Below are positions 985-40,418 of a stretch of 40,418 bases of DNA, piece after piece. The stretch is from an uncultured Candidatus Saccharibacteria bacterium. GTDB lineage: Bacteria; Patescibacteriota; Minisyncoccia; Minisyncoccales; CAZWNE01. A program made the position numbers and the translations under genes. The stretch covers positions 1 through 40,418 of the forward strand of contig CAZWNE010000003.1 of the NCBI GenBank assembly GCA_964635155.1, in the 5' to 3' direction. Within the stretch, counting starts at the first letter, position 1, and each line of letters begins with the position of its first letter. The notes under the pieces are model-generated. The model did no database searches. It was not told the DNA's origin and saw only the letters and a program-made list of their open reading frames with translations.

Positions 985-1377
985 TTACTCTTTAATTTCG
1001 CAGAATTTACCCAGAATTTCTTTGGTTTTTTGCAGATTTCTGTCTTCAACTAGAAGATAGCTGGTCTCGTAGGTATCTATATAAAATATGCTGATATCCG
1101 CATCAGCCAGAGGTTTAGCTAAAGAAGCGACAATTCCCGTCAAGGAAAAACCCAGAGGGCCTTGTACCTTGAAAACCCTCCAATCAGTTTCCGCCAAAAT
1201 TCCGGCCGGAATTTTTTCCTGAGGCAGGATTATTGAAAGCTCGTTCATCGTCCTCGTGACGGAAGTAAAATTGCTGTCTCCCTGAGCCCAATCGGGAATC
1301 GGGCTGTTCTTGTCTAAATGGCAGATGCCTATTTTATCCGGCAAAATAGATAGCGCGAGTTTTGTATTGTTCTCCAT
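985..1377 (-). CDS. ACT-domain protein (ACT_7-like)
   Basis: 130 aa. The pattern ...NELSIILP...WRVFKVQGPLGFSLTGIVASLAKPLADADISIFYIDTYETSYLLV matches the stand-alone ACT_7 family as I recall it. Confidence 0.6.
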   Translation of the reverse strand: MENNTKLALSILPDKIGICHLDKNSPIPDWAQGDSNFTSVTRTMNELSIILPQEKIPAGILAETDWRVFKVQGPLGFSLTGIVASLAKPLADADISIFYIDTYETSYLLVEDRNLQKTKEILGKFCEIKE

Positions 1378-1400
1378 AAAACGAATTTTTTATTCTAAAA

Positions 1401-1435
1401 AATGAAGTTAAAGATGAAGTCGACACTTCATCGCC
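1401..1435 (-). repeat. double-hairpin repeat family 1, partial copy (hairpin 1 + linker)
   Basis: The minus strand reads GGCGATGAAGTGTCGACTTCATCTTTAACTTCATT. It overlaps the stop codon of the ASCH gene. Confidence 0.6.
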
Positions 1436-1916
1436 TTTTTATTTTAGCAATATTTCCCAAGGTTAGCCACGCCGACATGTTCCCGAATCCGGCTTTATTT
1501 ATATTAAACGGCTTTATTTTCTGGGGCTTTTCTAAAAATATCAACAAACAGTATTTTTTATTTTTAAACAACTTATAAAATTCGGGGATTTCATTTTTCC
1601 CGATCCCGTCGTCTTTGCCGTATTTATTTAAAATTTGCTTAACTTTTTGAGGAGTCAGATCGGGAGGTCGATGAAGTAATACTTTATCGACACCTTCGTC
1701 CGCTCTGGGCGGACTCGGTAAATAAATAACTTTTTTTACTTTGGCTTTTACTGAAACCGGCTCCCCTGAATTTTTGAAATAAATTGTATCCCCTTTTTTT
1801 ATTTTCCCCCACGGACAGCGTTTGGATTTATACCATCTTGATTCTATTTTCTTTTCTCGGGAAAGAATCTTCCCCATCATCCCCCACGACTTTTTCATTA
1901 TAGCTACGTGATCCAT
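1428..1916 (-). CDS. ASCH (PUA-like) domain protein carrying an in-frame repeat-element insertion
   Basis: 162 aa. The N-terminal KKGDTIYFKNSGEPVSVKAKVKKV and C-terminal YCLLIFLEKPQKIKPFNINKAGFG are ASCH-like. The central LPSPPRADEGVDKVLLHR is encoded by repeat copy 1666-1718. Confidence 0.55.
   Translation of the reverse strand: MDHVAIMKKSWGMMGKILSREKKIESRWYKSKRCPWGKIKKGDTIYFKNSGEPVSVKAKVKKVIYLPSPPRADEGVDKVLLHRPPDLTPQKVKQILNKYGKDDGIGKNEIPEFYKLFKNKKYCLLIFLEKPQKIKPFNINKAGFGNMSAWLTLGNIAKIKRR
1666..1718 (+). repeat. double-hairpin repeat family 1, full copy inside the ASCH CDS (antisense to the gene)
   Basis: GGTCGATGAAGTAATACTTTATCGACACCTTCGTCCGCTCTGGGCGGACTCGG aligns along its whole length with copies 15434 and 38876. 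Both stems are retained. Confidence 0.7.
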
Positions 1917-6499: not shown

Positions 6500-8442
<1,943 letters not shown>

Positions 8443-8480: not shown

Positions 8481-8487
8481 CTAGGCA

Positions 8488-8526
8488 GGCGATGAAGTTA
8501 CTGCTTCATCTGCTTTCACCTTCGCT
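8488..8526 (+). repeat. double-hairpin repeat family 1, partial copy
   Basis: GGCGATGAAGTTACTGCTTCATCTGCTTTCACCTTCGC. It lies between the terminator of 8564..9100 and the groES -35 box. Confidence 0.6.
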
Positions 8527-8550
8527 TTTTCTCCAAAAAAGCTCGGTAAG

Positions 8551-8573
8551 AAAAAGGCGCAAATTAATGCGCC
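8551..8573 (-). terminator. intrinsic terminator of gene 8564..9100
   Basis: The minus strand reads GGCGCA-TTAATT-TGCGCC followed by TTTTTCTT. It overlaps the stop codon. Confidence 0.55.
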
Positions 8574-10137: not shown

Positions 10138-10167
10138 GCCCCGGGTAAAATATCCGGGGCTCTTTTT
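10138..10167. terminator. terminator between the convergent protease and uvrA genes
   Basis: GCCCCGG-GTAAAATAT-CCGGGGC followed by TCTTTTTA. Confidence 0.6.
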
Positions 10168-11779
10168 ATTTAAGATTTTTTAAATATTGTCCAGTGTAGC
10201 TTTTTTTAATTTTAGTGATTTCCTTGGGATTGCCCTGGGCGACGATATAACCGCCTTTTTCTCCGCCTTCCGGACCCAAATCCAAAATCCAGTCGGAATT
10301 TTTAATTAAATCAAGGTTGTGTTCAATTGTGATAACCGTATTCCCTTTGTCTACTAATCCCCGCAAAACAAAAACTAATTTTTTAATATCGTCGGGATGC
10401 AAGCCGGTGGTCGGCTCGTCTAAAATATACAATGTCTTGCCCGTGGCTTTTTTAGAAAGCTCGTCGGCTAATTTTACCCTTTGGGCCTCGCCCCCGGACA
10501 AAGAAGGAGCCGATTGGCCCAATTGGATATAACCCAAGCCTACTTCGTTCAAGGTTTTCAATTTCTGGAAAATTGCCGGAATCGGCTGGAAAAATTTCAA
10601 AGCGTCTTCAACCGTCATTTCCAGAACATCGGCGATATTTTTCCCTTTATATTCAATGGATAAGGTCTCTTTATTAAATCTTTTCCCCTGGCATTCTTCG
10701 CACTCAACATAAACATCGGGTAAAAAATACATTTCGATTTTTTTCACGCCCTGTCCTTCGCAGGCCTCGCATCTGCCTCCCTTAACATTAAAAGAAAATC
10801 TGCCCGGCCGATAACCCCTGACTCTCGCTTCTTTAGTTTTGGTGAAAAGGTCTCTTATATATGTAAAACAGCTTGTGTAGGTTGCGGGATTTGACCTTGG
10901 AGTCCTACCTATGGGCGATTGGTCAACTAAGACCGCCTTGTTCAAATTTTCAATCCCCAAAATCGCTTTGTGAAGACCCGGCTCTTCTTTGGCCCGATAA
11001 AACCTTTTCAGCAAAGCCCGGGCCAAAATATCGTTCATTAAAGATGATTTGCCCGACCCCGACACCCCGGTGATGCAAACAAATTTCCCAAGCGGAATTT
11101 TAACGTCTATATTTTTCAGATTATGCTCTTTAGCGCCTTTGATCGTTAGAAACTTGGTTTCTTTTTGTTGAAACCGAGTTTCTATTAAAACGGTTTTTCT
11201 CCCCGATAAATAGTCTCCCGTCAAAGTATGGCTTTTTAATAGCTGACTTGGCGTTCCTTCAAAAATAATTTTTCCGCCGTGCTTCCCGGCCCCGGGCCCC
11301 ACATCTATTATCCAATCAGAACTCCTGATTGTCTGAGGATCGTGTTCAACTACAATAACGCTATTTCCCAAATTTCTTAATTTTTTTAAGGTTTCAATAA
11401 GCCGGCCCTGATCTCGGGGATGAAGCCCGACCGATGGTTCATCTAAAATATATAAAACTCCGGTTAATTTGGAGCCGATTTGAGTGGCTAATCTTATTCT
11501 TTGCTCTTCCCCGCCGGATAGAGTATCGGCGCGTCTGTCTAAGGTTAAATAATCCAGGCCAACATCAATTAAAAACTGTAAACGATTGATAATTTCTTTA
11601 ATAATCGGGTTGGCAATTTTTATTTCATCGGCTTTCAGTTTTAAGCCGGCAAAAAACTCCTTCAATTTATCAATCGGCATTTCTACGATTTTATCGATTG
11701 ATTTTCCAGCTATTGTCACGGCTAATACTTCCGGCTTTAATCTTTTTCCATGGCAAATTTCGCATTTTTTCACGAGCAT
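10166..11779 (-). CDS. uvrA: excinuclease ABC subunit A, C-terminal fragment (downstream of the in-frame TAG)
   Basis: 537 aa starting [21 protein letters not shown], with [12 protein letters not shown], a second Walker [11 protein letters not shown], zinc module CEACEGQG...CEECQGKRF and [12 protein letters not shown]. Confidence 0.9.
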
Positions 11780-11785
11780 GTATTG

Positions 11786-12787
11786 CTAAATTTCCTGCCT
11801 GACAAAATCAGAATCGGTTTCGTGATATATTCTTTCAAGCCAAGGAATAACGCCTTCAATATCTGCCTGACCATACTTATATATTAAATTGGGATTGGCT
11901 AAAACCAATTTCGGGTCAACTTCCAATTTTTCGCCCAGGCCCTGGCATCCGGGACACGCTCCAAAAGGGGAATTGAAAGAAAAAAGGCGAGGTTCCAATT
12001 CTTGCATAGAAATACCGCAGGCCTCGCAGGCAAAATTCTCGCTGAAAATTGAATCATTTACCATGACTATCCCCTTGCCTAGCTTTAAAGCTGTTTCCAA
12101 AGAATCAACCATCCTAGATTTATCCAAATCCCTATCCAGAATTAATCTGTCAACCACCACTTCAATATTGTGTTTTTTATTTTTATCCAGTTCTTTTGTT
12201 AGGGCCTCTTCTAAAAGATAAATTATGCCGTCTATCCTGGCTCTGACAAAACCGGCCCTTTTTATTTCTTCCAGAATTCCTTGATGCTCCCCTTTTTTCT
12301 GACGGATAACGGGCCCCAAAATGGTAATTTCTTTATTTTTAGCTCCGCCCGAGGATGGATTTAAAATCTGCTCCACAATCTGGTCAATCGTTTGCCGGGA
12401 AATCGGTTTGCCGCATTTCGGGCAATGAGGCTTGCCGATTCTGGCAAATAAAAGACGAAGATAATCATAAATCTCCGTCATTGTGCCCACGGTGGAGCGC
12501 GGATTATGGCTGGCTTTTCTTTGGTCAATGGAAATTGCCGGGGAAATCCCTTCGATAGAATCGGCATCGGGCTTGTCCATTATTCCCAGAAACTGCCTGG
12601 CATAAGGCGAAAGCGATTCCACGTATCTTCTCTGGCCTTCGGCATATAAGGTATCGAAAGCCAAAGAGGACTTGCCCGAACCCGAAAGTCCGGTGATGAC
12701 CACCAGTTTATTTTTAGGGATATCAACGTCTACGTTTTTCAGGTTATGGACCCTGGCCCCCCGAATTTTAATAAAATTTTCCGGCAT
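11786..12787 (-). CDS. uvrA: excinuclease ABC subunit A, N-terminal fragment (ends at the in-frame TAG)
   Basis: 333 aa with [10 protein letters not shown], Walker [20 protein letters not shown]...CEACG and [17 protein letters not shown]. It is in the same frame as 10166..11779, separated only by TAG-CAA-TAC. Confidence 0.9.
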
Positions 12788-12847: not shown

Positions 12848-13897
12848 ATGCCAAATCTGCCTTGGAAAAAAATATCTTTTACTGTCTTTGGTTTTATTTT
12901 GGGAACTTTCTTATTTTTAGGAAATTCCGCTTTCAGTTTTTTGATAAAACCGACGGTCATCGATATTGCTCCTTTGCCCGCCCAGGTTTCAAAAAACCTT
13001 GCCGAAAATCTGCCCGAAAGCCAACCAAAAGAAATTTCCCTGATTCTAACTGGCGATATCATGCTTAATCGACGGGTCGATTTGATGATGAAAGCTAAAA
13101 ACGACTACACTTTTCCTTTTCAAAAAATTGCTGAAAAATTAAATGAGGCGGATATTGTTTTTGGCAACCTGGAAAATCCAATTTCTGACAAGGGCAAAAA
13201 AACGGGCAGCATTTATTCTTTCCGCGCCGATCCCAAATCCGTAGAAGGTTTGATTTTTGCCGGTTTTGACGTTTTATCTCTGGCTAATAATCACTCTTTT
13301 GATTACGGAAAAATCGCCCTAGAAGATACCTTTTCACGATTAAAAGCGGCCGGCATTAATTATGTTGGCGCCGGTTTCAACGGAAAAGAGGCCTTCTCTC
13401 CGATTATCAAAGAAGTTGACGGAACAAAAATCGGCTTTTTGGCTTACAGCGATTTAGGTTCTGTTTATTGGACGGCTACGGAAAATTCGTCAGGATTAGC
13501 TTTAATCAGCTTAGAGTATTTTGAGAACATTAAGCAAGATATCAGAAAGGCAAAATCGCAGGTTGATATTTTAATTGTTTCTCTGCACTCGGGCGAAGAA
13601 TATATCAAAGAACCAGGGCCGCAGCAAATTAATTTTGCCAAAGCCGCCATTGACGAAGGCGCTGATATTATCGTGGGGCATCACCCGCACATTGTTCAAA
13701 AAAATGAAATTTTTAAAAATAAATATATATTTTACAGTTTGGGAAATTTTGTTTTTGACCAGAATTTTTCTCCAGAAACAATGGAGGGCCAAATTATTAA
13801 AGTTGCCATAGAAAATAAAAAGATAAAAGAAGTAATTCCCATAAACATTAAAATCAACCAGTATCTTCAACCGGAAGTAGCCAATGCGCAAAATTAA
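12848..13897 (+). CDS. CapA-family (poly-gamma-glutamate/capsule biosynthesis, metallophosphatase-fold) protein
   Basis: 349 aa with an N-terminal TM, LTGDIMLNRRV, FGNLENPIS, LSLANNHSFDYG, YVGAG and VGHHPHIVQ. Confidence 0.8.
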   Translation: MPNLPWKKISFTVFGFILGTFLFLGNSAFSFLIKPTVIDIAPLPAQVSKNLAENLPESQPKEISLILTGDIMLNRRVDLMMKAKNDYTFPFQKIAEKLNEADIVFGNLENPISDKGKKTGSIYSFRADPKSVEGLIFAGFDVLSLANNHSFDYGKIALEDTFSRLKAAGINYVGAGFNGKEAFSPIIKEVDGTKIGFLAYSDLGSVYWTATENSSGLALISLEYFENIKQDIRKAKSQVDILIVSLHSGEEYIKEPGPQQINFAKAAIDEGADIIVGHHPHIVQKNEIFKNKYIFYSLGNFVFDQNFSPETMEGQIIKVAIENKKIKEVIPINIKINQYLQPEVANAQN

Positions 13898-14765
13898 AAC
13901 CCTTGTCATCATCTTGTTATTGACGGCCGCCGGTTTTTATCTGTATCAGCAAAAAAAACAAGACCCCATTTCTCTTTCGGCAAGCGAGCTGGCGCAAGGC
14001 GACACTCTTTTAATTAAAATGAATGGCTCGGCATCCGAGGAGAAAATCACCGGAGAATTCGGTTCCCGAAAAATAGATTTTTTCCAACAGACAGCTATTT
14101 TAGGCATTGATGTCAATGAGAGGCCAGGCGAGCATATTTTAATTATAAATTTGCCAAGCGGCAAAAAAATAGAAAAAATAATCAATATCAGCAAAACGGA
14201 TTTCCCAACAACCGAACTTTTGGTCACCAAGGAACTCCGGAAAAAGGGTTACACTCCCCAAAAAATCGTCGGCAATATTCAAGGGGAAGAAGGTTTAACT
14301 TTAAAAAAAATTATTAGCACTTATACTCCAAAAATTTATTTTGACAAGGCCTTTATCAACCCCCTAAAAGAAATTAAAATCGTCGGGGCTTTCGGCATTA
14401 TCAAAAAAACCGGCAGTTCGACCATTCAGCACCTAGGAGTTGATTTGGACGCCGAAATCGGGACCGAGGTTTTGGCCAGCAACGACGGCAAAGTAAGTTT
14501 TTCCCGGGAACTGCCGGATTACGGCAGAACCCTGATTATAGACCACGGCTTGGGGATTTATTCTCTTTATCTGCACTTGGAAGAATTCAAAACTTTTGAA
14601 GGAAAACTGGTCAAACAGGGCCAAGTTATCGGGCTTTCGGGCAACAGCGGGTACTCCATTGCCCCTCATTTGCATTTTTCAATCAAAATCAACAATGCCA
14701 ACGTCGACCCGCTGAAATTTCTTGAAACCACGCAGTCATGGAGAAATTCAAATATCTTGGAATAG
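13884..14765 (+). CDS. M23 (LytM-type) peptidoglycan endopeptidase
   Basis: 293 aa with a signal/TM, HLGVDLDA (HxxxD), GRTLIIDHGLGIYSLYLHL and SGNSGYSIAPHLHFSI. Confidence 0.88.
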   Translation: MRKIKTLVIILLLTAAGFYLYQQKKQDPISLSASELAQGDTLLIKMNGSASEEKITGEFGSRKIDFFQQTAILGIDVNERPGEHILIINLPSGKKIEKIINISKTDFPTTELLVTKELRKKGYTPQKIVGNIQGEEGLTLKKIISTYTPKIYFDKAFINPLKEIKIVGAFGIIKKTGSSTIQHLGVDLDAEIGTEVLASNDGKVSFSRELPDYGRTLIIDHGLGIYSLYLHLEEFKTFEGKLVKQGQVIGLSGNSGYSIAPHLHFSIKINNANVDPLKFLETTQSWRNSNILE

Positions 14766-15940
14766 AACAAATTAACAAACTCCCCGAAACTCCCGGGGTT
14801 TATGTTTTCCCTGCCCTGAGCCGCGCCGAAGGGTTTCTTTACATTGGCAAGGCGGTTAATCTCCGCGATCGGACCAAACAACATCGTGGGTTGCTTAACC
14901 AGGTTAAGCAACTAGGATATATCCGAACTGATTCCGAGATTGAAGCCCTGATTCTGGAGTCCCAGCTAATTAAAAAATACCAGCCCAAATATAATACTAT
15001 ATGGAAAGACGATAAAAACTACTTTTATGTGGCGATAACTAAGGAAGATTACCCCAAAGTTTTAATAGTTCACCAAAAAAAAGAAGGGGCTGAATACATA
15101 GGGCCGTTTGTGGAAGGAAGCGCTCTAAAGCAAACGTTAAAAATACTTAGGAAAATATTCCCCTACTATACGCAAGGCAAGCACCCCAAGGGCCCTTGCC
15201 CTTGGTGCCGCTTAAATCTTTGCCCCGGACCAAATCCGGATAAAAAAGAATATCAAAAAAGCATTAAAAATCTAATTTCGGTCCTGGAGAGTAAAAAGAA
15301 GTCCGTCCTGAATAATTTGAAACAAGAGATGAAAAAGGCCTCAAGAGAAGAAGATTTTGAAAAAGCGGCTAAATTAAGGGACCAGGTCATAAATTTGGAA
15401 AAAATAATTTCCAACGCCAAAATCTTTCCGCAGGGCGATGAAGCGTTGCTTCATCTTCATCTTCGTCCCGCTTTACGGGACTCGATAATGGAAGCTTATG
15501 ACGTTTCTAATATCCAGGGAAAATATGCCACCGGTTCCATGGTAACTTTTATTAACGGCCGGCCGGAGAAAAATTTCTACCGCAAATTCAGAATTAAAAT
15601 GGCCGATAAGCCGAATGACACAGCTATGCTTAAAGAAATCCTCTCTCGCAGATTAAAACATTTAGAATGGCCTTTGCCCGATGCTATCTTAATTGATGGC
15701 GGAAAAGCGCAACTCAACGCCGCCCTGCTGATAGCTAAAAACTATCAACTAAAAACTAAAATAATGGCTTTGGCGAAAAAGAAAAACGAATTGTTTATTG
15801 AGGGGAAAAAATCGCCGATTTTATTAAAAACCATGCCGAGGGAAATGTTTAATTTAATTTTAAATTTAAGAGACGAAGCGCACAGATTTGCCATCTCTTA
15901 CCACAAAAAACTAAGAGCTAAAGCATTGCTTCCAGAATAG
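14738..15940 (+). CDS. uvrC: excinuclease ABC subunit C, short form (no C-terminal HhH2), carrying two repeat elements in frame
   Basis: 400 aa with GIY-YIG (PGVYVF...LYIGKAVNLRDR...EALILESQLIKKYQPKYN), a Cys cluster, a UVR domain (EEDFEKAAKLRDQVINLEKI) and an RNase H-like endonuclease domain (EAYDVSNIQG...YRKFRIK...ILIDGGKAQL). It ends right after that domain. Confidence 0.88.
   Translation: MEKFKYLGIEQINKLPETPGVYVFPALSRAEGFLYIGKAVNLRDRTKQHRGLLNQVKQLGYIRTDSEIEALILESQLIKKYQPKYNTIWKDDKNYFYVAITKEDYPKVLIVHQKKEGAEYIGPFVEGSALKQTLKILRKIFPYYTQGKHPKGPCPWCRLNLCPGPNPDKKEYQKSIKNLISVLESKKKSVLNNLKQEMKKASREEDFEKAAKLRDQVINLEKIISNAKIFPQGDEALLHLHLRPALRDSIMEAYDVSNIQGKYATGSMVTFINGRPEKNFYRKFRIKMADKPNDTAMLKEILSRRLKHLEWPLPDAILIDGGKAQLNAALLIAKNYQLKTKIMALAKKKNELFIEGKKSPILLKTMPREMFNLILNLRDEAHRFAISYHKKLRAKALLPE
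14890..14912. repeat. palindrome family 2 (10-3-10), perfect copy inside uvrC
   Basis: GTTGCTTAAC-CAG-GTTAAGCAAC, with exactly complementary arms. Confidence 0.8.
15434..15484 (+). repeat. double-hairpin repeat family 1, full copy inside the uvrC CDS (sense)
   Basis: GGCGATGAAGCGTTGCTTCATCTTCATCTTCGTCCCGCTTTACGGGACTCG is 51 nt (17 codons). Confidence 0.75.
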
Positions 15941-24695: not shown

Positions 24696-26117
24696 CTAAT
24701 CTAAGGAATCGGCATTGACGTTTATTTTAGAATTCCAGTCAACTTCTTTATAATTATGAAGAAGTTTTTTTATATAATCTTTCAAAAAATTATAACGGTC
24801 TTGGGTTTTAGCTTCAAATTTGATTGTTAAATAAGGGCCGTTTTGGGAATAACGGATGATAAACATTCCATCTGATAAATTAAGGCGAACGCCGTCCCCC
24901 ACCCGTTCGTCGTCAATTATTTGGGCCTCCGGGAAACTATTTTTTAGAACATTCCCGATTTCAGCCATTAATCCGACTTTTTTCTCATCAGGGCAAAATA
25001 ATTTGATTTCCGGGCTGGAGATATACTCGGGAAAAGATTTAATAACAGCAGACAATGGCTGCTTTGATTTTGCCAAGTGGCTTAATAGCCTTAATGTCGA
25101 ATAAAGGCCATCGTCATGATTATAAAAATCTGCGGAAAAAAAGAAATGTCCCGATAGTTCTCCGATAAAGGCCGCTTTTATTTCTTCGTTCTTTTTCTTT
25201 AAAAATGAATACCCCGTTCTCCACATAAACGGCTTGCCTCCGTATTGAACAATTGTCTCTTCAACCGCTTTTGAACATAAAGCATTATACATTATAGTTG
25301 CGCCCGGATGGTCATTTAAAACATCTTTGACAAAAACAGGTAAAAGAGCGTCATTCCAGATAATATTTCCCTTATCATCAACCACGCCGATGCGATCGCC
25401 GTCTGAATCATAAGAAAATCCCAAATTCGCTCCCGACGACGATACCGCCTCTTTTAATCTTTCTGCCACTTCTTTTGAGGTGGGATCTGGGGTGCCGATG
25501 GGAAAGCTGCCGTCAATCTCGCAATTTTTACAGATAACTTCGCAGCCAGCTTTTTTCAAAAGCTCGGGAACAAAAATTCCGGGAGTGGAATTGCTAGGAT
25601 CAACAACTACTTTAAAATTGAAGGGAAGAGAGAATCTCTCAAACAAATTATTAAAATAAGCTTCTTTTATGTCTTTTCTTTCTAAAATTCCCTGGCCTTG
25701 GGAAAATTTTCCGCTTTCGGCTATTTGGCGCAATTCCTGGATTTCTTCACTAACCATGGTGCTCGAAAGCCCCGTGCCAAGCTTAAATCCATTGTATTCG
25801 GCGGGATTATGCGAAGCAGAAACGGAAACATATCCTTCTGCCTCAAAATAATGTTGAGCCCAGGATATTGTTCCAGCCAGGGCTAAACCAATATCAATAA
25901 CATTAACCCCGGCGCTTAAAATGCCTTTTATTATCGCCTCGCTGTAAGATTCGCTCGTCAAACGGCAATCGCGGCCGATGACTGCTTTTTTTATACCGCT
26001 TCTTAATAAAAAAGCACCGTAAGACCGGCCCAAGTGCTCAACTATTTCCGGATTTAAGTCCTTATCAACTAAGCCGCGAATATCATAACCGCGGAATATA
26101 TATGGATTGACTTTCAT
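24696..26117 (-). CDS. phosphomannomutase/phosphoglucomutase
   Basis: 473 aa with the active-site loop SASHNPAEYNGFK and the metal loop GFSYDSDGDR. Confidence 0.9.
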   Translation of the reverse strand: MKVNPYIFRGYDIRGLVDKDLNPEIVEHLGRSYGAFLLRSGIKKAVIGRDCRLTSESYSEAIIKGILSAGVNVIDIGLALAGTISWAQHYFEAEGYVSVSASHNPAEYNGFKLGTGLSSTMVSEEIQELRQIAESGKFSQGQGILERKDIKEAYFNNLFERFSLPFNFKVVVDPSNSTPGIFVPELLKKAGCEVICKNCEIDGSFPIGTPDPTSKEVAERLKEAVSSSGANLGFSYDSDGDRIGVVDDKGNIIWNDALLPVFVKDVLNDHPGATIMYNALCSKAVEETIVQYGGKPFMWRTGYSFLKKKNEEIKAAFIGELSGHFFFSADFYNHDDGLYSTLRLLSHLAKSKQPLSAVIKSFPEYISSPEIKLFCPDEKKVGLMAEIGNVLKNSFPEAQIIDDERVGDGVRLNLSDGMFIIRYSQNGPYLTIKFEAKTQDRYNFLKDYIKKLLHNYKEVDWNSKINVNADSLD

Positions 26118-27007: not shown

Positions 27008-27191
27008 ATAAAAATTGGTTTTAAAAACTTAATAGGACAAATAAGGTTTATTGCTAGCATTTTTTATTTAGAAGGACATGGTTTACAAAAACAAAGAGAA
27101 AGAAAAGTAAAACAGAAAAGAGTATTATCAAAATAACATAGAAAAGATACTAAAAAATAAAAAAGAATACTACCAAAGAAATAAGGAAAAA

Positions 27192-27794
27192 ATGCGAGAG
27201 CGAATGCGGTCGTATGGTAAGAAGTGGTATCTAAAAAACAGGGAGAGGATGCGATTGCTTCATAAAGAATACTATCACAAAAATAAAGCGGGCGTATCGC
27301 AATACCATAAAAAATGGTATAAAAATAATAAGGAAAAACTGTTAAAATATAGCGAGATCTATTATCAAAAAAATACAGAAAAAATACGACAACGCCATAG
27401 ATTGTATAATCAAAAAAATAAGAGAAAAATATTAAAGTATAAGGGGGAGTGGCAAAGACATATGGCGAAGACAGATCCTAAATATCGTCTTGATCAAAAT
27501 ATGGGGACAGCTCTCTGGAATTCCTTAAAAAATAAAAAAGCAGGAAAAAATTGGGAAATTTTTGTTAATTACACATTAGAAAATTTAGTAAAACATTTAG
27601 AAAAACAATTTAATAATAAAATGAACTGGAGTAATTACGGAAGCTATTGGGCAGTTGATCATATAAAACCGCGGAGTTTATTTAATTATTCTTCTCCGAA
27701 TGATCTTGGATTCAAACAATGTTGGGATTTAAAAAATCTACAACCATTAGAGAAAATAAAAAATATAATAAAAGGTAATCGTTATATTAATTAA
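27192..27794 (+). CDS. free-standing HNH homing-type endonuclease with N-terminal tandem-repeat region
   Basis: The C-terminal WAVDHIKPRSLF...NLQPLEKIKNIIKGN is an HNH motif. The N-terminus holds about 6 degenerate 15-16-aa repeats (YYxKNxEKxxxxxx). The same frame continues upstream to ATG 27078 but is broken by TAA at 27108-27110. Confidence 0.75.
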   Translation: MRERMRSYGKKWYLKNRERMRLLHKEYYHKNKAGVSQYHKKWYKNNKEKLLKYSEIYYQKNTEKIRQRHRLYNQKNKRKILKYKGEWQRHMAKTDPKYRLDQNMGTALWNSLKNKKAGKNWEIFVNYTLENLVKHLEKQFNNKMNWSNYGSYWAVDHIKPRSLFNYSSPNDLGFKQCWDLKNLQPLEKIKNIIKGNRYIN

Positions 27795-28023: not shown

Positions 28024-29041
28024 ATGGACTCAGTTTGTAAGCCAGTATCGCTTTTTTTATTTTTTCCAAAATCGCCGGATTTTCTTTTAAAAATACTTTA
28101 GCGCCCTCCAGGCCTTGGCCGATTTTCGTATCTTCATACTGAAGCCAGCTGCCTGCTTTTTTAATCAACTCCAATCTTAAGCCGGTATTGACGATATCGG
28201 CTATTCTGGAAATTCCTTCATTGTAATAAATATCAAACTCCGTGGTTTTAAAAGGGGCGGCCACTTTATTTTTGACAATTTTGGCTTTCACTCGATTTCC
28301 AATAATTTCCTCGCCATGCTTTATCTGGGCGGTTCTCCTTAATTCAATTCTCACGGAAGCATAAAATTTTAAAGCCAAGCCCCCGGGAGTTGTTTCCGGA
28401 TTGCCGAACATAATTCCCACCTTCATCCTGATTTGATTTAAAAATATAACGACTGTTTTAGTTCTAGAAATAATGCCGGAAAGCTTTCTCAAGGCCTGCG
28501 ACATTAAGCGGGCTTGAAGCCCTATCTGGAACTCCCCGACTTCGCCGGAAATTTCAGCTTGGGGAACCAAAGCCGCCACAGAGTCCACCACAATAACATC
28601 AATTTCGCCCGATTTTACCAGCGTCTCTACAATCTGCAGGGCCTGCTCGCCAGAATCCGGCTGGGAAATCAATAAATCGTCAATATTGACTCCGATTCTT
28701 CTCGCATAATCTGGATCCAAAGCATGCTCGGCATCGACAAAAGCGCCGACCCCTCCCTTTTTCTGGGCTTCGGCCAAAATATGAAGAGCCAAAGTGGTTT
28801 TGCCGGCAGATTCATTCCCAAAAATTTCCACGACCCTGCCCCTGGGCACTCCCCCGACTCCTAAAGCCAAGTCTATTGAAATAGCGCCAGTCGGAATCAC
28901 ATCAACATCAACAGCCCTGACATCTTTTAGTTTCATGATCGCGCCCTCGCCAAAACGCTGTTTGATTTCTTCAACCGCATCTTTTAAATCCTTTGGTTCC
29001 TCTTTAATTGAAGTTTCTTCTTTTTTCATATTTTTTGCCAT
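28022..29041 (-). CDS. recA: recombinase RecA
   Basis: 339 aa with Walker [11 protein letters not shown] and [10 protein letters not shown]. It is colinear with RecA, so no intein. Confidence 0.97.
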
Positions 29042-31224
29042 TCTTTATCTTCGTCAGATTCGTTATTATTTATCGGCGAAACCGGCAAGCCGCTCGGCTC
29101 GCTGGCAAAACGGACTTCCCGAGGCTTAGCCCCGTCTGAAGGGCCCACTATGCCCTTATCTTCCAGCATATCTAATAATCTGGCCGCTCTGGCATAACCG
29201 ATCCTCAACCTCCTCTGCAAAAGAGAGGCTGACGCCTTTCTGGCTTCCATAACTTGTCTTTTAGCTTCTTCATAAAGAGGGTCTTGGCCGTAAAATCCGT
29301 CGAACTCCGATTCTTGCGTCTCCAAGGCTCGGCTTAAATCTTCGGACATCTGATTTTCTAAAACTCCTTCTTCTATTTTTTCCACTGCCAATTTGGCGTT
29401 CGCCTCATTAATCCATTCTACCGTTTTTTTCACTTCTTTTTCCGAAACATAAGCGCCCTGAATTCTTTTTGGTTTTATAACTTCAGCCGACAAAAATAAA
29501 AGATCTCCTGCTCCCAACAATTTTTCTGCGCCGGCAGCGTCCAAAACCGTTCTTGAATCAACTTGAGAAGCAACCTGAAATGTTATTCTGGAAGTGATAT
29601 TGGCCTTAATCAAACCGGTAATCACTTCCACCGACGGCCGCTGGGTAGCCAAGACCAAATGAATGCCTACGGCTCTGGCCATTTGGGCCAACCTGACTAT
29701 TCCTGCTTCCATTTCTTTGCCCCTAGCAGCCATTAAATCGGCCAACTCGTCGACAACCAAAACAATATAGGGCAGAGGCGGAATCTCTTTTTTAAAAGCA
29801 ACTTCATTGTAACCCTTAATATCCCTTGTCCTTTCGGCTGATAAAGCATTAAATCTTCTTTCCATTTCTCCGATCAGCCATTTTAAGGCGTTAATGGTTT
29901 TTTGGGGGTCTAAAATTACCGGACATAATAAATGGGGCAAATCGTTGTAAACCGGGAACTCCACCCTTTTCGGGTCAACCATAATCAGCCGGAGCGTTTC
30001 GGGCGAGTTGCGATAAAGAAGAGACATAATTAGAGAATTCAAAAATATGGTTTTGCCGGTGCCCGTTGATCCGGCTACCAATAAATGAGGCATTTTTGCC
30101 AAATCGGCATATGTCGGATTGCCCGACACATCATTCCCCAAACATAAAGCCAAGTTTGCCGCCGAATTTTGGAATTGAGAATTAGAAATTAAATTTTTAA
30201 GCCTGACCTGAACTCGAACTTTATTGGGAACTTCAACGCCAACTAATGCTTTTCCGGGAATAGGGGCCTCGATTCTGATGGGGTGATTAGCCAAAGCTAA
30301 AGCTAAATCATTGGAAAGAGTGGTAATCTTGGCAAGTTTGATGCCGTCAGCCGGTTTTAAGGTGTATTGAGTAACGGTCGGACCGATGTTTATTTCTGAC
30401 ATTTCCACGGGAATATTAAAATTTTCCAGGGTCTTTTTAATTATGGCCGAATTCATTCTAATGTCGCCGGCTGAAGGCACACCCCTGTCTCCCTCTAACA
30501 AGTCAAGGGGCGGAATTTGATATTTATATTTTGGCAAAATCGTTCCTGCCGCCTTTTTTGACAAAACAGCTGGAGCCGTCTCAGAAGGGGCTTTTATTGC
30601 CGAGGGTTCAGACCCCGGCTCAATCTCGTGTATTTTAAATTTTGGTAAAAATAATTTTTTGATGAATGACGTCTTGGCGGATTCTGAAAATTGAACCGCT
30701 TTTTGAGTTTCTTTCTCTTTGCTTTTTTTCGGCCAGGGCTGGCCCAAAAGATGCCAGAAAATCAAAGTTCCGACGAGTATAACCCCGGCAAAAATAATTT
30801 CGGAAACCCAAAAACCAAAAAATTTTAAAAATGGCTTAGAAGCCAGGCCTAAATATCCCCCGAATTTTAAATCGGGGTTTAAAATTTCAAAGAGAGCGGA
30901 AATTCCCAAAATTAAAAGAAAAGCGCCGATGAACGCCCCTCTTAACAATTTATTATACGGAGAAAGAATAAAAATTAATCCCCCTAAAGCCAATATCAGG
31001 GGCAGAAGAAAAATCGTCCGGCCTAACGCTATATTCAGGCCCTGAAAAATTATGCTTCCGGCTAATCCCGCCCGGTTAAAAAAACTGAAAATAACGATTA
31101 TTGCCAAAAGGAAAACAATCATACCGAAAATCTGCTGTTTTACTTTTTGCGCCAAGCCAAATAAATTGCTTTCCTTTTTTTCTCCGCCGTTCTTTTTCTT
31201 GTTTTTAGCTTTCCTTGACATCAA
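29026..31224 (-). CDS. ftsK: DNA translocase FtsK
   Basis: 732 aa with N-terminal TM helices, Walker [19 protein letters not shown] and a gamma-domain winged helix ([28 protein letters not shown]). The 3' end overlaps recA by 16 nt. Confidence 0.93.
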
Positions 31225-31264: not shown

Positions 31265-31287
31265 GTTGCTTAACCTGGTTGAGCAAC
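31265..31287. repeat. palindrome family 2 copy, between the GNAT gene and the ftsK start
   Basis: GTTGCTTAAC-CTG-GTTGAGCAAC, with one arm mismatch (G-T on the plus strand). Confidence 0.75.
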
Positions 31288-31295
31288 CTTTGATT

Positions 31296-31838
31296 TTACA
31301 AATATCGAAGCATAACTATTTCATCATATAACTTACCTTGGAATTCTCTTTGATTAGGGATGGAAGCCACTTTTTTAAAGTTATATTTTTTGTAAAGATT
31401 AATAGCTGGTTTATTGATGGGAAAAACATCCAATTTCAAAATCTTCGGTTTTGGTTTCAATTTTTTCTTCGCTAATTCTATCACTTCGCCCATCAAATAA
31501 GTTCCCAGGCCAATTCCGCGATAACCTTTTTTTATAACGATCCCAAAATTACCGACATGCTCTCCCCTGCCTTCATTCAAGAAAATCTGAGTAGTACCAA
31601 CTACCATATCGTTAGCTTCCGCTATTAAATAAATCGATCTGTGGCTTTTCATTCCTTTCAATTGTTCTTCCAAAAATTTCTTTTCCTGCGTCAATGAAAG
31701 CTTTTTATTAAGGTTAATTAAAGCCCCTTCTTTAATCACAGAATTAATATAAGTTTGGAATTTTCTAATATTCCCGATGTCTTTCTTAGAAAATTCCCTT
31801 ATTGTTATTTTTTCTCCATCAAAAATTTTAGTTTTCAT
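31296..31838 (-). CDS. GNAT-family N-acetyltransferase
   Basis: 180 aa with the acetyl-CoA binding block KKGYRGIGLGTYLMGEVIELAKK and NKPAINLYKKYNFKK. Confidence 0.8.
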   Translation of the reverse strand: MKTKIFDGEKITIREFSKKDIGNIRKFQTYINSVIKEGALINLNKKLSLTQEKKFLEEQLKGMKSHRSIYLIAEANDMVVGTTQIFLNEGRGEHVGNFGIVIKKGYRGIGLGTYLMGEVIELAKKKLKPKPKILKLDVFPINKPAINLYKKYNFKKVASIPNQREFQGKLYDEIVMLRYL

Positions 31839-31888: not shown

Positions 31889-31911
31889 GTTGCTTAGCCT
31901 AGTTAAGCAAC
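31889..31911. repeat. palindrome family 2 copy, between the rpoC stop and the GNAT gene
   Basis: GTTGCTTAGC-CTA-GTTAAGCAAC, with one arm mismatch (G-T on the plus strand). Confidence 0.75.
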
Positions 31912-38667: not shown

Positions 38668-38780
38668 ACAAAACAAACGAAAAGACCCTAATGCTTATCT
38701 TGTTTTAGGGTAAAAATATTGAATTTTAACTTAAAAATGAGGGGGTCAATTATTTATCAAGTTTTTAATTCATTAAAAAT

Positions 38781-38812
38781 GCAGATGAAGATGAAGCTTT
38801 AGCTTCGTCGCC
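38781..38812 (-). repeat. double-hairpin repeat family 1, partial copy in the rpoB leader
   Basis: The minus strand reads GGCGACGAAGCTAAAGCTTCATCTTCATCTGC. Confidence 0.65.
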
Positions 38813-38841
38813 TAACAAAAGAAACCGATTACGTAAATTTA

Positions 38842-38870
38842 ATACTACTCCCTTTATTTTTTGGTGTCAA
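38842..38870 (-). promoter_or_regulatory. sigma70-like promoter upstream of rpoB
   Basis: The minus strand reads TTGACA (38870-38865), a 17-nt spacer, then TAGTAT (38847-38842). Confidence 0.4.
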
Positions 38871-38875
38871 GTACG

Positions 38876-38928
38876 CGAGTCCCGCAAAGCGGGACAAAGC
38901 GTGAAGATAAAGCTTTAGCTTCATCGCC
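38876..38928 (-). repeat. double-hairpin repeat family 1, full intergenic copy
   Basis: The minus strand reads GGCGATGAAGCTAAAGCTTTATCTTCACGCTTTGTCCCGCTTTGCGGGACTCG. It starts 2 nt after the TAG stop of the TPR gene and ends 5 nt before a TTGACA box. Confidence 0.75.
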
Positions 38929-38930
38929 AG

Positions 38931-40418
38931 CTACTTCTTGTTCAAATCGTTCAAGCGCAATTTTACTTCCTGATTATCCGGGTTTAATTCCAGCACTTTT
39001 TCAAAATAAGTTCTAGCTTTGGCATTATTCCCTTTTCTCTGCCAGGCCAAGCCCAAAGAATAAAGGGCGTTAGAATGATTGGGAAAGATTTGAAGCACGG
39101 TTTCGAACACGGCAATGCTGTCTTGCAATTGATTATTGTTATAGTAAAGCCGGCCGAGCCAGAATCTCAATTCCGCATTGAAGGGATTCGCTAAAACCAG
39201 ACTCTCCGTTGTTTTTATTGCTTCACTTATGTTCCCTTCTTGCTCTTGGACCAAGGCCTCCTGGAAAATGGCATCGATAAAATCTGGTTTTAATTCTTTG
39301 GCTTTGATTAATTGCTCTTTAGCTTTATTCAAATCATCCGGAATGTAAATTTTTGCCAGCTCGGTTCTTAATACGGGATTGGTGGGTTCTAATTCAATGG
39401 CTTTTTCAAATGATTTTATCGCCCAGTCAGCAGCTCCCTGAGTCATAATTCTTATATCTCTGTAAACCATAGCCATTGTTTCCCACGCCGCGACTTGGCC
39501 GGGCCCCCTTAAAACAGCTATTTTGGCAGTGTTAATGGCCTTGGCCACTTTCGTCTGAATAAGAGTGCCATCTGACTCCAAAACGGCATCTCGCAAATAA
39601 GTCCTGGCAAGAACTGTCCAATACTGGGCCTGATAAGGATTTAATTTCGCTGTTTTTTCAAGAAGAGCAATTCTAACTTTAGCATCAGCCGTTCTTTGAG
39701 CCTGAAGAAAGGTTTTGTCCGCCAGATAAAACCTGGCGCCAAAAAATATTAGCCCCAGGGCCCCAAGGCCGACCATAATTAAAATTGTTGTAAAAACTAA
39801 ATTCAGTTCTGGAAAATTTTTAAAAGAAAAAACTTTCTCTTTGATGGGTTTTTGCCAAGAAACCACCGACAGGGCCAGCACCAGCCAGAAAACAAAAGCT
39901 AGAATCGTATTCTGATAATAAACAAATTGGCTGACTACTAAAGCGGTAAAAGCCATGAATAAAGGCAGCTGGTAATTTTTTGCCTCCGAATTTTTATTCG
40001 TAAAAAAATAACTTACCAGCAAAAACATTGAAATTAGCGCCAGCCAAAAAAGAATGCCCAAAAATCCCATTGTGCCAAGAATTTCCGAAAAATAAGAACC
40101 CGACCGGTCAAATCTTATCTGCCAGAGCTGATTCTGATTGAAACTAACCGGCTTTTCTTTGGCAAAATCATAATGGAAAGTGCCGAGACCGGAACCAAAA
40201 AAAGCTGACTTGACATTATCGGTTGCCGATTTAAATCCGACCTGCCAGGAAATACTCTGCCCCAGCACCCGCTCTCGAGGTAATTGGAAATCAATTAAGT
40301 TGACGAAAAGAAATAAACTTGATACTAAAATCAAAAATATCGGCAGCAAGAGCTTGTTTACGTTTTCTTTAAAAATTCTCTTCCATAAAGCAAAACCCAG
40401 GAATAAAATTAGGCTCGC
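38931..40418 (-). CDS. polytopic membrane protein with C-terminal TPR repeats (O-antigen-ligase-like/TPR type); N-terminus off window
   Basis: The reading frame stays open from 40349 to the window end, so the track TTG start is not the true start. It has several hydrophobic helices, then TPR units (FEKAIELEPTNPV..., ALYSLGLAWQRKGNNAKARTYFEKVLELNPDN). Confidence 0.6.
   Translation of the reverse strand, partial: ASLILFLGFALWKRIFKENVNKLLLPIFLILVSSLFLFVNLIDFQLPRERVLGQSISWQVGFKSATDNVKSAFFGSGLGTFHYDFAKEKPVSFNQNQLWQIRFDRSGSYFSEILGTMGFLGILFWLALISMFLLVSYFFTNKNSEAKNYQLPLFMAFTALVVSQFVYYQNTILAFVFWLVLALSVVSWQKPIKEKVFSFKNFPELNLVFTTILIMVGLGALGLIFFGARFYLADKTFLQAQRTADAKVRIALLEKTAKLNPYQAQYWTVLARTYLRDAVLESDGTLIQTKVAKAINTAKIAVLRGPGQVAAWETMAMVYRDIRIMTQGAADWAIKSFEKAIELEPTNPVLRTELAKIYIPDDLNKAKEQLIKAKELKPDFIDAIFQEALVQEQEGNISEAIKTTESLVLANPFNAELRFWLGRLYYNNNQLQDSIAVFETVLQIFPNHSNALYSLGLAWQRKGNNAKARTYFEKVLELNPDNQEVKLRLNDLNKK

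Follow-up and report, generated by a model that had tools for sequence, protein, structure and literature searches.

A two-hairpin interspersed repeat carried in frame by the uvrC gene of an uncultured Candidatus Saccharibacteria bacterium

Introduction

Bacteria of the candidate phyla radiation (CPR) possess tiny, streamlined genomes which are usually described as poor in mobile DNA. In this respect, a contig of 40,418 nucleotides from an uncultured Candidatus Saccharibacteria bacterium (CAZWNE010000003.1, assembly GCA_964635155.1; the whole stretch is referred to here as the window) raises the question of how a palindromic segment of 17 codons came to reside within uvrC, a gene of nucleotide excision repair. 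An initial annotation, made from the letters of the window, had taken this segment for a mobile or duplicated sequence inserted in frame in the manner of the Rickettsia palindromic elements (RPEs). The analysis presented here favours, with a probability of roughly 85%, a selfish short interspersed repeat, one copy of which occupies the UvrC linker where it is tolerated and translated. The description that suits the element best is that of a new interspersed repeat, very short and with two hairpins, which inserts in frame into protein genes of CPR bacteria of the Parcubacteria type (Nealsonbacteria and relatives). The literature on palindromic repeats, MITEs (miniature transposable elements with inverted repeats), repetitive extragenic palindromes (REPs) and REP-associated tyrosine transposases (RAYTs) in CPR, Parcubacteria or Patescibacteria yielded no earlier description, which is suggestive, not proof, of novelty.

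The repeat unit in the linker of uvrC

The element of uvrC, GGCGATGAAGCGTTGCTTCATCTTCATCTTCGTCCCGCTTTACGGGACTCG, is read as the peptide GDEALLHLHLRPALRDS, which corresponds to residues 233-249 of UvrC; both the sequence and the list of open reading frames (ORFs) agree with the 51 nt and 17 in-frame codons initially reported at 15434-15484. Pfam recognizes in UvrC a GIY-YIG domain (residues 23-86), a UVR motif (188-222) and UvrC_RNaseH_dom (250-386), the last match beginning at profile position 12, immediately past the element. The boundaries at 222 and 250 thus place the element where it had been located, between the UVR and endonuclease domains, and it fills the gap that separates the UVR motif from the RNase H-like nuclease domain. 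It is flanked by CCGCAG on the 5' side and by about ATAATGGAAG on the 3' side and, because the family consensus runs on as CTCG-GTA/ATA (CTCG-RTA), it probably extends to 15487, i.e., over 54 bases. The second of its two hairpins is preceded by a conserved CTTCG and followed by a conserved CTCG. Folded alone, the 51-mer forms both hairpins as RNA at -21.6 kcal/mol (z = -4.6) and reaches -13.3 kcal/mol as DNA (z = -5.2), energies matched by none of the 200 shuffled controls. When the intergenic copy at 38876-38928 is reverse-complemented and aligned globally with the element, 44 of 53 columns are identical (83%), reproducing the ~80% announced for this pair, and zero nucleotide matches to the element are expected by chance. 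The same uvrC, insert included, occurs in the NCBI metagenome-assembled genome (MAG) GCA_016181995.1 and in the Logan assembly of SRR12113384.

A protein search retrieved 7565 UvrC homologs at E<=1e-20. The linker varies from about 5 to about 45 residues across 120 orthologs, and none of the other 119 carries the same peptide at the same position. The nearest ortholog (protein P0002 of locus L001; 381 aa, 71% identity), whose locus is syntenic with the window over uvrA, PGA_cap, the M23 peptidase, uvrC, secG and SBP, is devoid of the peptide and reads ...ARVLWPQKRIEAYD (...VLWPQKRIEAYD) where the window reads ...AKIFPQ-GDEALLHLHLRPALRDS-IMEAYD. Aligned at the DNA level, the two genes differ by a 45-nt gap, so that the predicted indel is present at a net size of 15 codons instead of the 17 residues anticipated. 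In other lineages the same linker harbours family-like peptides, GEKDKSSSLPFAAAR in P0016 and GEESKFSSSPFAIAR in P0022, and further family-derived peptides occur there in P0052 and P0103.

Three uvrC alleles (L066, L067 and L068), 92-97% identical in nucleotides, display filled and empty sites of sister elements. L067 is the empty site, L066 carries a 48-nt sense insert after ...TTTTTGAG, and L068 carries a 45-nt antisense insert 21 nt upstream. A second insert of L068 (~1620-1735), a 99-nt composite made of an antisense hairpin 2, a full sense unit and an antisense hairpin 1, lies in frame inside the RNase H-like domain, between FKIK and LQGKPND (compare P0064 and P0103), and is absent from the 92-97% identical alleles. 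Because of these filled and empty alleles and of the linker peptides of other lineages, the UvrC linker is a recurrent landing site for the repeat family, and the copy of the window most readily reads as an insertion that arose in this lineage. As to the mobility initially proposed, the filled/empty polymorphism is observed; the mobile status of the element is drawn from that polymorphism and not from a mechanism.

A multi-copy family of CPR genomes

The family was identified by a hairpin-aware scan, followed by a covariance model, R1, built from 23 copies. Its consensus reads (TA)GGCGA(T/A)GAGG-loop-CCTC(A/T)TC-TTCACCTTCG-TCCCGC-loop-GCGGGA-CTCGGTA, with an element size of 45-60 nt family-wide. 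The model recognizes six copies in the window (Table 1), of which the three with the lowest scores look like half copies but really possess an AT-rich hairpin 2 between the conserved CTTCG and CTCGGTA.

Table 1. Coordinates of uvrC, of its repeat unit and of the copies recognized by the covariance model in the window
Feature	Position	Strand	Description	Model score
uvrC	14738..15940	+	400-aa ORF, short CPR form without C-terminal HhH domain	
uvrC element	15434..15484	+	51 nt, sense strand, 17 codons in frame, two hairpins	
Hairpin 1 of uvrC element	15437..15455	+	GATGAAGC / loop GTT / GCTTCATC, 8 bp	
Hairpin 2 of uvrC element	15465..15481	+	GTCCCG / loop CTTTA / CGGGAC, 6 bp	
uvrC copy	model hit 15430-15494	+	inside uvrC	73.4 bits (E = 5e-25)
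ASCH-gene copy	1666..1719, model hit 1663-1727	+	54 nt, antisense to gene 1428..1916(-)	63.6 bits
Intergenic full copy	38876..38928, model hit 38866-38932	-		62.3 bits
Intergenic copy	1372-1439	-	AT-rich hairpin 2	50.8 bits
Intergenic copy	8484-8555	+	AT-rich hairpin 2, GCTTTTT/AAAAAGC	38.3 bits
Intergenic copy	38748-38816	-	AT-rich hairpin 2, rpoB 5' region	35.8 bits

The second intragenic copy of the window lies in the ASCH-domain gene, the relatives of which are nearly all 143 aa long. Compared with these relatives it is a clean insertion of 18 codons, read as PSPPRADEGVDKVLLHRP, and the empty site GTTATTTCTTT/TTCCGA, found in L072, is filled by exactly 54 nt of antisense element without target duplication. 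The insert PSPPRADEG(V/G)D(K/E)(V/A)LLHRP is common to the window protein and to two relatives at ~76% identity and has been inherited through speciation; among these orthologous copies one stem pair shows a compensatory double change, with L071 as the single-change intermediate. Regarding the intergenic copies, the one at 1372-1439 contains the TGA stop of the ASCH gene within its GGCGATGA and is followed by the ATG of the next gene 4 nt past its 3' TCG, and the full copy begins 2 nt past the point where the TPR gene 38931..40349(-) reaches its stop codon. Directly after this full copy, upstream of rpoB, comes a promoter-like TTGACA-(20 nt)-TATTAA (38840-38875, minus strand), and the copy at 8488 adjoins a similar TTGACA...TAATAT site on the opposite strand.

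When a degenerate pattern was run against a single genome of each species, two-hairpin matches in several copies were confined to low-GC CPR MAGs. The genome of 'bacterium E14_metabat.bin.93' contains 11 of them, and the other carriers are two Nealsonbacteria, Parcubacteria CG1_02_39_15, Paceibacter normanii and one Saccharibacteria MAG. Some 40 matches in high-GC genomes are devoid of hairpins and mostly single, a few of them corresponding to the same homologous locus in related genomes. A stricter pattern recovered at least 120 metagenome contigs, mostly from groundwater and sediment, and had no matches among viral contigs. With the covariance model, 141 matches were counted in 174 kb (the window plus CPR loci) and at least 190 in 505 kb of metagenome contigs, i.e., a total of at least about 330 matches in about 680 kb of related CPR DNA. 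Together with the absence of the peptide from the nearest ortholog, these hundreds of copies in unrelated contexts uphold the initial view of a dispersed repeat rather than an ancestral coding sequence.

The two hairpins are supported by covariation. In the 23-copy alignment 98% of the stem cells are paired and 33 cells are double changes, values reached by none of 500 shuffles, and slid controls are 36-50% paired; this first alignment was picked by a pattern fixing some columns, among which the covarying columns do not figure. In the stem of hairpin 1, A-U and G-C interchange at one pair (10 of the 23 copies), A-U, C-G and U-A alternate at another, and T-A and A-T share a third pair in a ratio of 36:21 (61 copies). 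In hairpin 2, C-G exchanges with G-C, and G-C with C-G or A-U, and the stems of other copies are AT-rich. Copies are also arranged in tandem, spaced by GTA or GTG, and separate modules cluster in mixed orientation.

In-frame copies in other host genes

The location within a coding sequence is not peculiar to uvrC. In-frame copies, in either orientation relative to the host gene, were found in genes confirmed by Pfam as encoding ValRS, GatA, MnmA, TsaD, a DegT aminotransferase, RsmA, a Mur ligase, CTP synthase, NusA, MurB, a pseudouridine synthase, the ribosomal proteins L3 and L18, a P-type ATPase and HrcA, the copy of MnmA sitting between two domains as in UvrC. Depending on the sample, such copies amount to ~7/61 deep inside long open frames, to 17/83 inside called ORFs, and to 45 of 150 metagenome copies in frames open over at least 60 aa on both sides, a count that takes in some duplicate loci and possibly spurious frames. 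By inspection, four of the six reading frames of the consensus are stop-free; the recurrent peptides are GDEAKASSSPFAIAR in the sense and R..KGEDE..SSP in the antisense orientation. All copies in Pfam-confirmed genes are stop-free in the host frame, and all intragenic inserts resolved against an empty site are multiples of three (45, 48, 54 and 99 nt). In this respect, uvrC stayed open because four of the six element frames are stop-free and the copy kept the frame.

A copy also occurs in the syntenic locus L001 (8322-8375), where it forms the last ~18 codons of the PGA_cap gene, which stops at an ATGA that also starts the M23 peptidase gene; the copy is absent from the window ortholog of PGA_cap (12848..13897), which is shorter by 14 residues.

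The UvrC protein and its pathway

The ORF had been said to stay open, and it does so with every column invariant in an alignment of 31 orthologs preserved in the window UvrC. The catalytic residues kept include Tyr, Arg, Glu and Asn of the GIY-YIG domain and, further on in the RNase H-like nuclease domain, an Asp in EAYD, another in IDGG and a His in EAHRFA. In an AlphaFold2 model built from the 31-sequence alignment (mean pLDDT, the predicted local distance difference test, of 75), residues 225-245 score below 50; they are preceded by a UVR helix modelled with confidence and followed by a nuclease domain scoring 83-95. Because of this low confidence beside well-folded domains, the insert most likely forms a surface linker, either disordered or weakly helical. 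The intact catalytic residues and the position in a linker speak for a benign insertion. The insert would be transcribed and translated with UvrC as a tolerated disordered loop of ~17 residues, and appears to be a passenger, either neutral or mildly deleterious, and not a functional module.

Another gene of the pathway, uvrA, is split in the window by a single in-frame TAG (11786-11788, minus strand) between the ORFs 11786..12787(-) and 10166..11779(-); the syntenic relative L001 has GAG (Glu) at this position. The TAG could reflect a nonsense mutation or a pseudogene, a strain variant or a sequencing error.

Comparison with known palindromic repeats

The best reading of the element combines an anatomy of the type of REPs or bacterial interspersed mosaic elements (BIMEs), in which it resembles a REP doublet, with an RPE-like behaviour. 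By strict membership it falls outside the RPEs on account of its size, outside the REPs on account of its location (REPs being extragenic) and of the lack of a cognate RAYT among the genes examined, and outside the MITEs on account of the lack of terminal repeats and target duplication.

RPEs measure ~100-150 bp (~150 bp in the review cited here) and belong to ten Rickettsia-specific families, each with a conserved peptide; R. conorii genes contain 44 insertions, nearly half of them inside ORFs (PMC10969869). Like them, the element is a dispersed palindromic repeat of a reduced genome, intergenic and unusually often in frame within housekeeping genes (PMC10969869). It resembles them also by its palindromic nature and stable predicted fold (the z-scores and covariation given above) and by its insertion in linkers or loops, e.g., the UvrC linker and the inter-domain linker of MnmA. 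The initially proposed analogy therefore holds in behaviour, with in-frame copies in at least 15 Pfam-confirmed genes. In contrast to RPEs, the element is 51-54 nt long in the window, with the family-wide range given above, and lives in a CPR host; it consists of two separable hairpin modules, which also appear as arrays and with mixed orientation, and host genes read it in several of its frames and in both orientations (e.g., GDE..SSSPFA.AR and R..KGEDE..SSP). The host is a CPR bacterium and not a Rickettsia, sequence homology to RPEs is not expected, and the comparison is one of size, structure and behaviour.

REPs are short (20-40 nt) imperfect palindromes in which a short conserved motif lies beside a variable stem. 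The modules of the element, with stems of 8-9 bp or 6-7 bp, resemble them in this organization, in the lack of terminal inverted repeats and target duplications, and in their tandem and mixed-orientation clusters. As for the conserved GTAG-like tetranucleotide at the 5' side of REPs, hairpin 1 often has TA or (G)TAG ahead of it: GGCGA is preceded by TA in 19/61 and 52/150 copies and by GGTA in 3/61 and 13/150 copies, a motif which is frequent without being fixed. Unlike REPs, which are extragenic by definition, about a tenth to a quarter of the element copies lie inside genes, and the unit is a fixed pair of two different hairpins.

MITE-like features consist of the small size, the non-autonomous look, the multiple copies and the structured nature of the element. 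However, the definition of a MITE calls for terminal inverted repeats, for target-site duplications and for a full-length insertion sequence (IS) related to it, none of which was found for the element, as regards the IS in an HUH-motif scan of ~1 Mb of CPR loci. Bacterial MITEs such as Correia, ERIC, Nezha, QMITE and others occasionally form in-frame fusions with host ORFs (PMC10969869). Palindrome-associated transposable elements (PATEs) of the IS200/IS605 type are placed 3' of a tetra- or pentanucleotide that is fixed, and produce no duplication; at resolved sites the 5' flanks of the element end in TTGAG (L066), ATGAG (L068), GGGAG (ASCH, with an ambiguous boundary) and GCAG (uvrC), and the 5' flanks are variable family-wide. 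A target-site duplication of ATGA was considered and ruled out, the empty sites L067 (uvrC) and L072 (ASCH) being devoid of ATGA.

Mycobacterial interspersed repetitive units (MIRUs) are 40-100 bp units located at gene junctions of operons, where the flanking stop and start codons overlap the unit. The element recalls them by its 5' CGATGA, which supplies the stop of the ASCH gene, and by the ATG occurring 4-5 nt past its 3' end in about a quarter of the copies. It differs from them in that its internal ATG shares a frame with the downstream ATGA in only about a third of the hand-read copies, which is chance, and no in-frame insertion into essential proteins is reported for MIRUs. A MIRU-like upstream ORF or translational coupling was accordingly rejected, the internal ATG being in phase with the downstream ATGA in ~3/8 copies, again the chance level.

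Possible mode of spread

The repeat has multiplied in Parcubacteria-type CPR genomes, and one copy would have landed in the variable linker between the UVR and nuclease domains of uvrC. Its spread may have relied on the recognition of single-stranded hairpins by an HUH/Y1 enzyme, of the REP/RAYT or IS200/IS605-like type. Several features fit this proposal, which must be regarded as doubtful, better than the cut-and-paste transposition of a MITE: the element has hairpins, it is devoid of terminal inverted repeats and of target duplications, its arrays are tandem or of mixed orientation, and RAYT-like Y1 genes abound in the clade.

In ~1 Mb of CPR loci, a scan for the HUH motif detected a single Y1_Tnp gene, L074 7243-8007(-) (Pfam, 30.6 bits), and no autonomous IS bearing the ends of the element. 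Its family counts more than 1500 proteins, ~240 aa in length, and is widespread among Nealsonbacteria and Minisyncoccales. The palindromes which flank the four RAYT-like genes inspected differ between lineages and from the element, e.g., ATACACCGGTTcAACCGGTGTAT. These genes and their palindromes look like classical RAYT-REP pairs; they indicate that hairpin-recognising Y1 enzymes are at home in the clade, without tying any of them to the element. The palindrome of the L074 gene, GACGGGGTCTGACCCCRGTAA, occurs at 7217-7237, 7766-7786 and 8014-8034, and its copy at 7766-7786 lies in frame inside the coding sequence of the RAYT-like gene itself (...NYRGQTPS...).

Weighing the evidence

Several points weigh against a selfish repeat that was inserted, tolerated and translated. 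There is no near-identical relative with an empty site for the uvrC copy of the window, the nearest being only 71% identical, and its exact boundaries are uncertain because of this distance and of the hypervariable linker. The net gain of 45 nt is accompanied by the replacement of the nearly invariant Arg of RIEAYD, giving IMEAYD; orthologs with other inserts at the same junction also lack this Arg (VIE in P0016, IIE in P0052). No transposase was detected in the window by Pfam scans of 31 ORFs, nor any Y1_Tnp by a motif scan of its whole length, and the Y1_Tnp genes of L074, L193, L194 and L195 are flanked on both sides by perfect palindromes of their own and not by the element. As judged by eye on consensus A3, CGA alone is common to the 5' end GGCGATGAGG and to the 3' end TACCGAGTCC taken as reverse complement; target duplications are nil for the ASCH copy, at most 1 nt for L068 and an ambiguous 3-nt GAG for L066. 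Nucleotide excision repair may be decaying, with relaxed selection on uvrC, and because of the in-frame TAG of uvrA the insert qualified as tolerated is perhaps untried by selection. An ATG occurs 4-5 nt past the element in 20/61 and 31/150 copies, counts possibly inflated by the 3' columns of the covariance model itself, and the 3' flank GT(A/T)nnT(G/A)A is conserved; the conserved single-stranded motifs and the start-codon spacing could point to a function beyond selfish spread. Finally, translation of the insert as part of UvrC is most likely, and is deduced rather than observed.

Related to the last but one of these points is the least improbable alternative, a functional RNA module affecting the expression of uvrC as a processing or stability signal, as a block to RNase J or a 3' exonuclease, or as a translation pause. 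E. coli REP elements stabilise upstream mRNA, and the stems of the element covary while the motifs CTTCG and CTCGGTA stay constant. Many intergenic copies are sense-oriented, exactly 4-5 nt before a start codon, in a window genome which is almost without Shine-Dalgarno sequences, has many leaderless-looking starts and encodes RNase J. However, the stem positions comprise 843 Watson-Crick pairs and 14 G-U versus 18 A-C, without strand bias or excess of G-U, a strand test for RNA selection that is uninformative or negative, and the orientations are nearly equal (27 sense and 20 antisense relative to flanking genes for intergenic copies, 10:7 inside ORFs). In addition, host genes are functionally unrelated and copies are polymorphic between near-identical alleles. 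Rfam at its gathering threshold reports two tRNAs only in the whole window and no family for the element, and at E<=10 it returns chance fragments of snoRNA and CRISPR-DR for the element and its best copy. The element appears to be a DNA-level repeat rather than a strand-specific RNA element, and an RNA module remains an improbable account of the uvrC copy. A hammerhead-like reading of the antisense strand (GAGUCCC...GGGACGAA) was discarded by eye, the CUGAUGA flank not being conserved and the GAAA being CAAAG in a sister copy.

Concerning translation initiation in the window, almost no Shine-Dalgarno-like sequences occur in the 30 nt upstream of 29 gene starts, and several starts lie 7-10 nt past a TATAAT-like box, e.g., 24696..26117, 11786..12787 and 29026..31224, which suggests leaderless or Shine-Dalgarno-independent initiation.

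A second alternative, much less probable, is that the insert is missing from the mature product as a result of a tiny intron, of ribosome bypass (known from T4 gene 60 and from the 'byp' elements of Magnusiomyces mitochondria) or of protein excision. Bypass elements resemble the element in size (about 50 nt) and hairpin content, and this reading would also accommodate the indirect nature of the evidence for translation. Against it, the resolved intragenic inserts are all multiples of three, and the copies in Pfam-confirmed genes are all stop-free, a constraint that would be needless if they were skipped. Moreover, uvrC has neither a take-off/landing codon pair nor a stop after the take-off site, 17 residues are far too few for an intein, and Rfam gives no group I or group II intron signal.

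The third alternative, that the 17 codons are ancestral or convergent and that the intergenic look-alikes derive from uvrC or from chance, is effectively refuted: canonical UvrC, as seen in longer orthologs, has a leucine-rich segment (L..L...L.L) right before the RIE motif, which the ALLHLHL of the insert loosely recalls, but the peptide is found in 0/119 orthologs and faces a gap in the nearest one, and the element, for which chance predicts zero matches, occupies hundreds of unrelated sites in both orientations and other reading frames.

Other palindromes and repeats

A second palindrome family of the window, GTTGCTTAACC-W-GGTTAAGCAAC, has a perfect 11-bp stem with a 1-nt centre and a format like that of the palindromes flanking the RAYT-like genes of relatives. 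It is represented by three copies versus 0 expected, at 14890-14912 (GIY-YIG region of uvrC), 31265-31287 and 31889-31911, the last two flanking a GNAT acetyltransferase gene (31296..31838, minus strand). The copy of uvrC lies in the codons LLNQVKQL and is not insertion-like, because this segment is conserved in orthologs in both length and sequence. Elsewhere, positions 27078-27430, in or near the ORF 27192..27794(+), contain about seven tandem repeats of 45 nt (15 codons) of the ...YYQKNKEKI... type, with 61-70% identity; the ORF encodes 200 aa without Pfam match. In a Nealsonbacteria contig (L194 1269-2744), a NifU-like gene with weak Pfam matches to intein-splicing and LAGLIDADG domains suggests an interruption by an intein.

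Significance

Taken together, the uvrC insert could be the tip of an undescribed, Parcubacteria-wide superfamily of ~50-nt two-hairpin repeats without terminal repeats or target duplications. Such a superfamily would colonise core genes in frame (aminoacyl-tRNA synthetases, L3, L18, NusA, CTP synthase and three sites of UvrC) at a scale rivalling or exceeding that of the Rickettsia RPEs, and would be moved by a hairpin-directed single-strand mechanism, some copies having been put to use as linkers of proteins or, where genomes are without Shine-Dalgarno sequences, as hairpins placed 4-5 nt ahead of start codons. As a whole, this broader proposal is given somewhat less than an even chance.

For the biology of CPR bacteria, a selfish repeat of this kind would account for part of the odd insertions of CPR proteins, and its inserts would map the insertion-tolerant loops of conserved enzymes. 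For annotators and structure predictors, segments like GDEAKASSSPFAIAR would have to be regarded as repeat-derived and not as lineage-specific domains. The copies would also offer polymorphic markers for strain tracking, and the mobilising enzyme, if identified, would provide a compact system of hairpin-directed insertion from a region of the tree that is unexplored.

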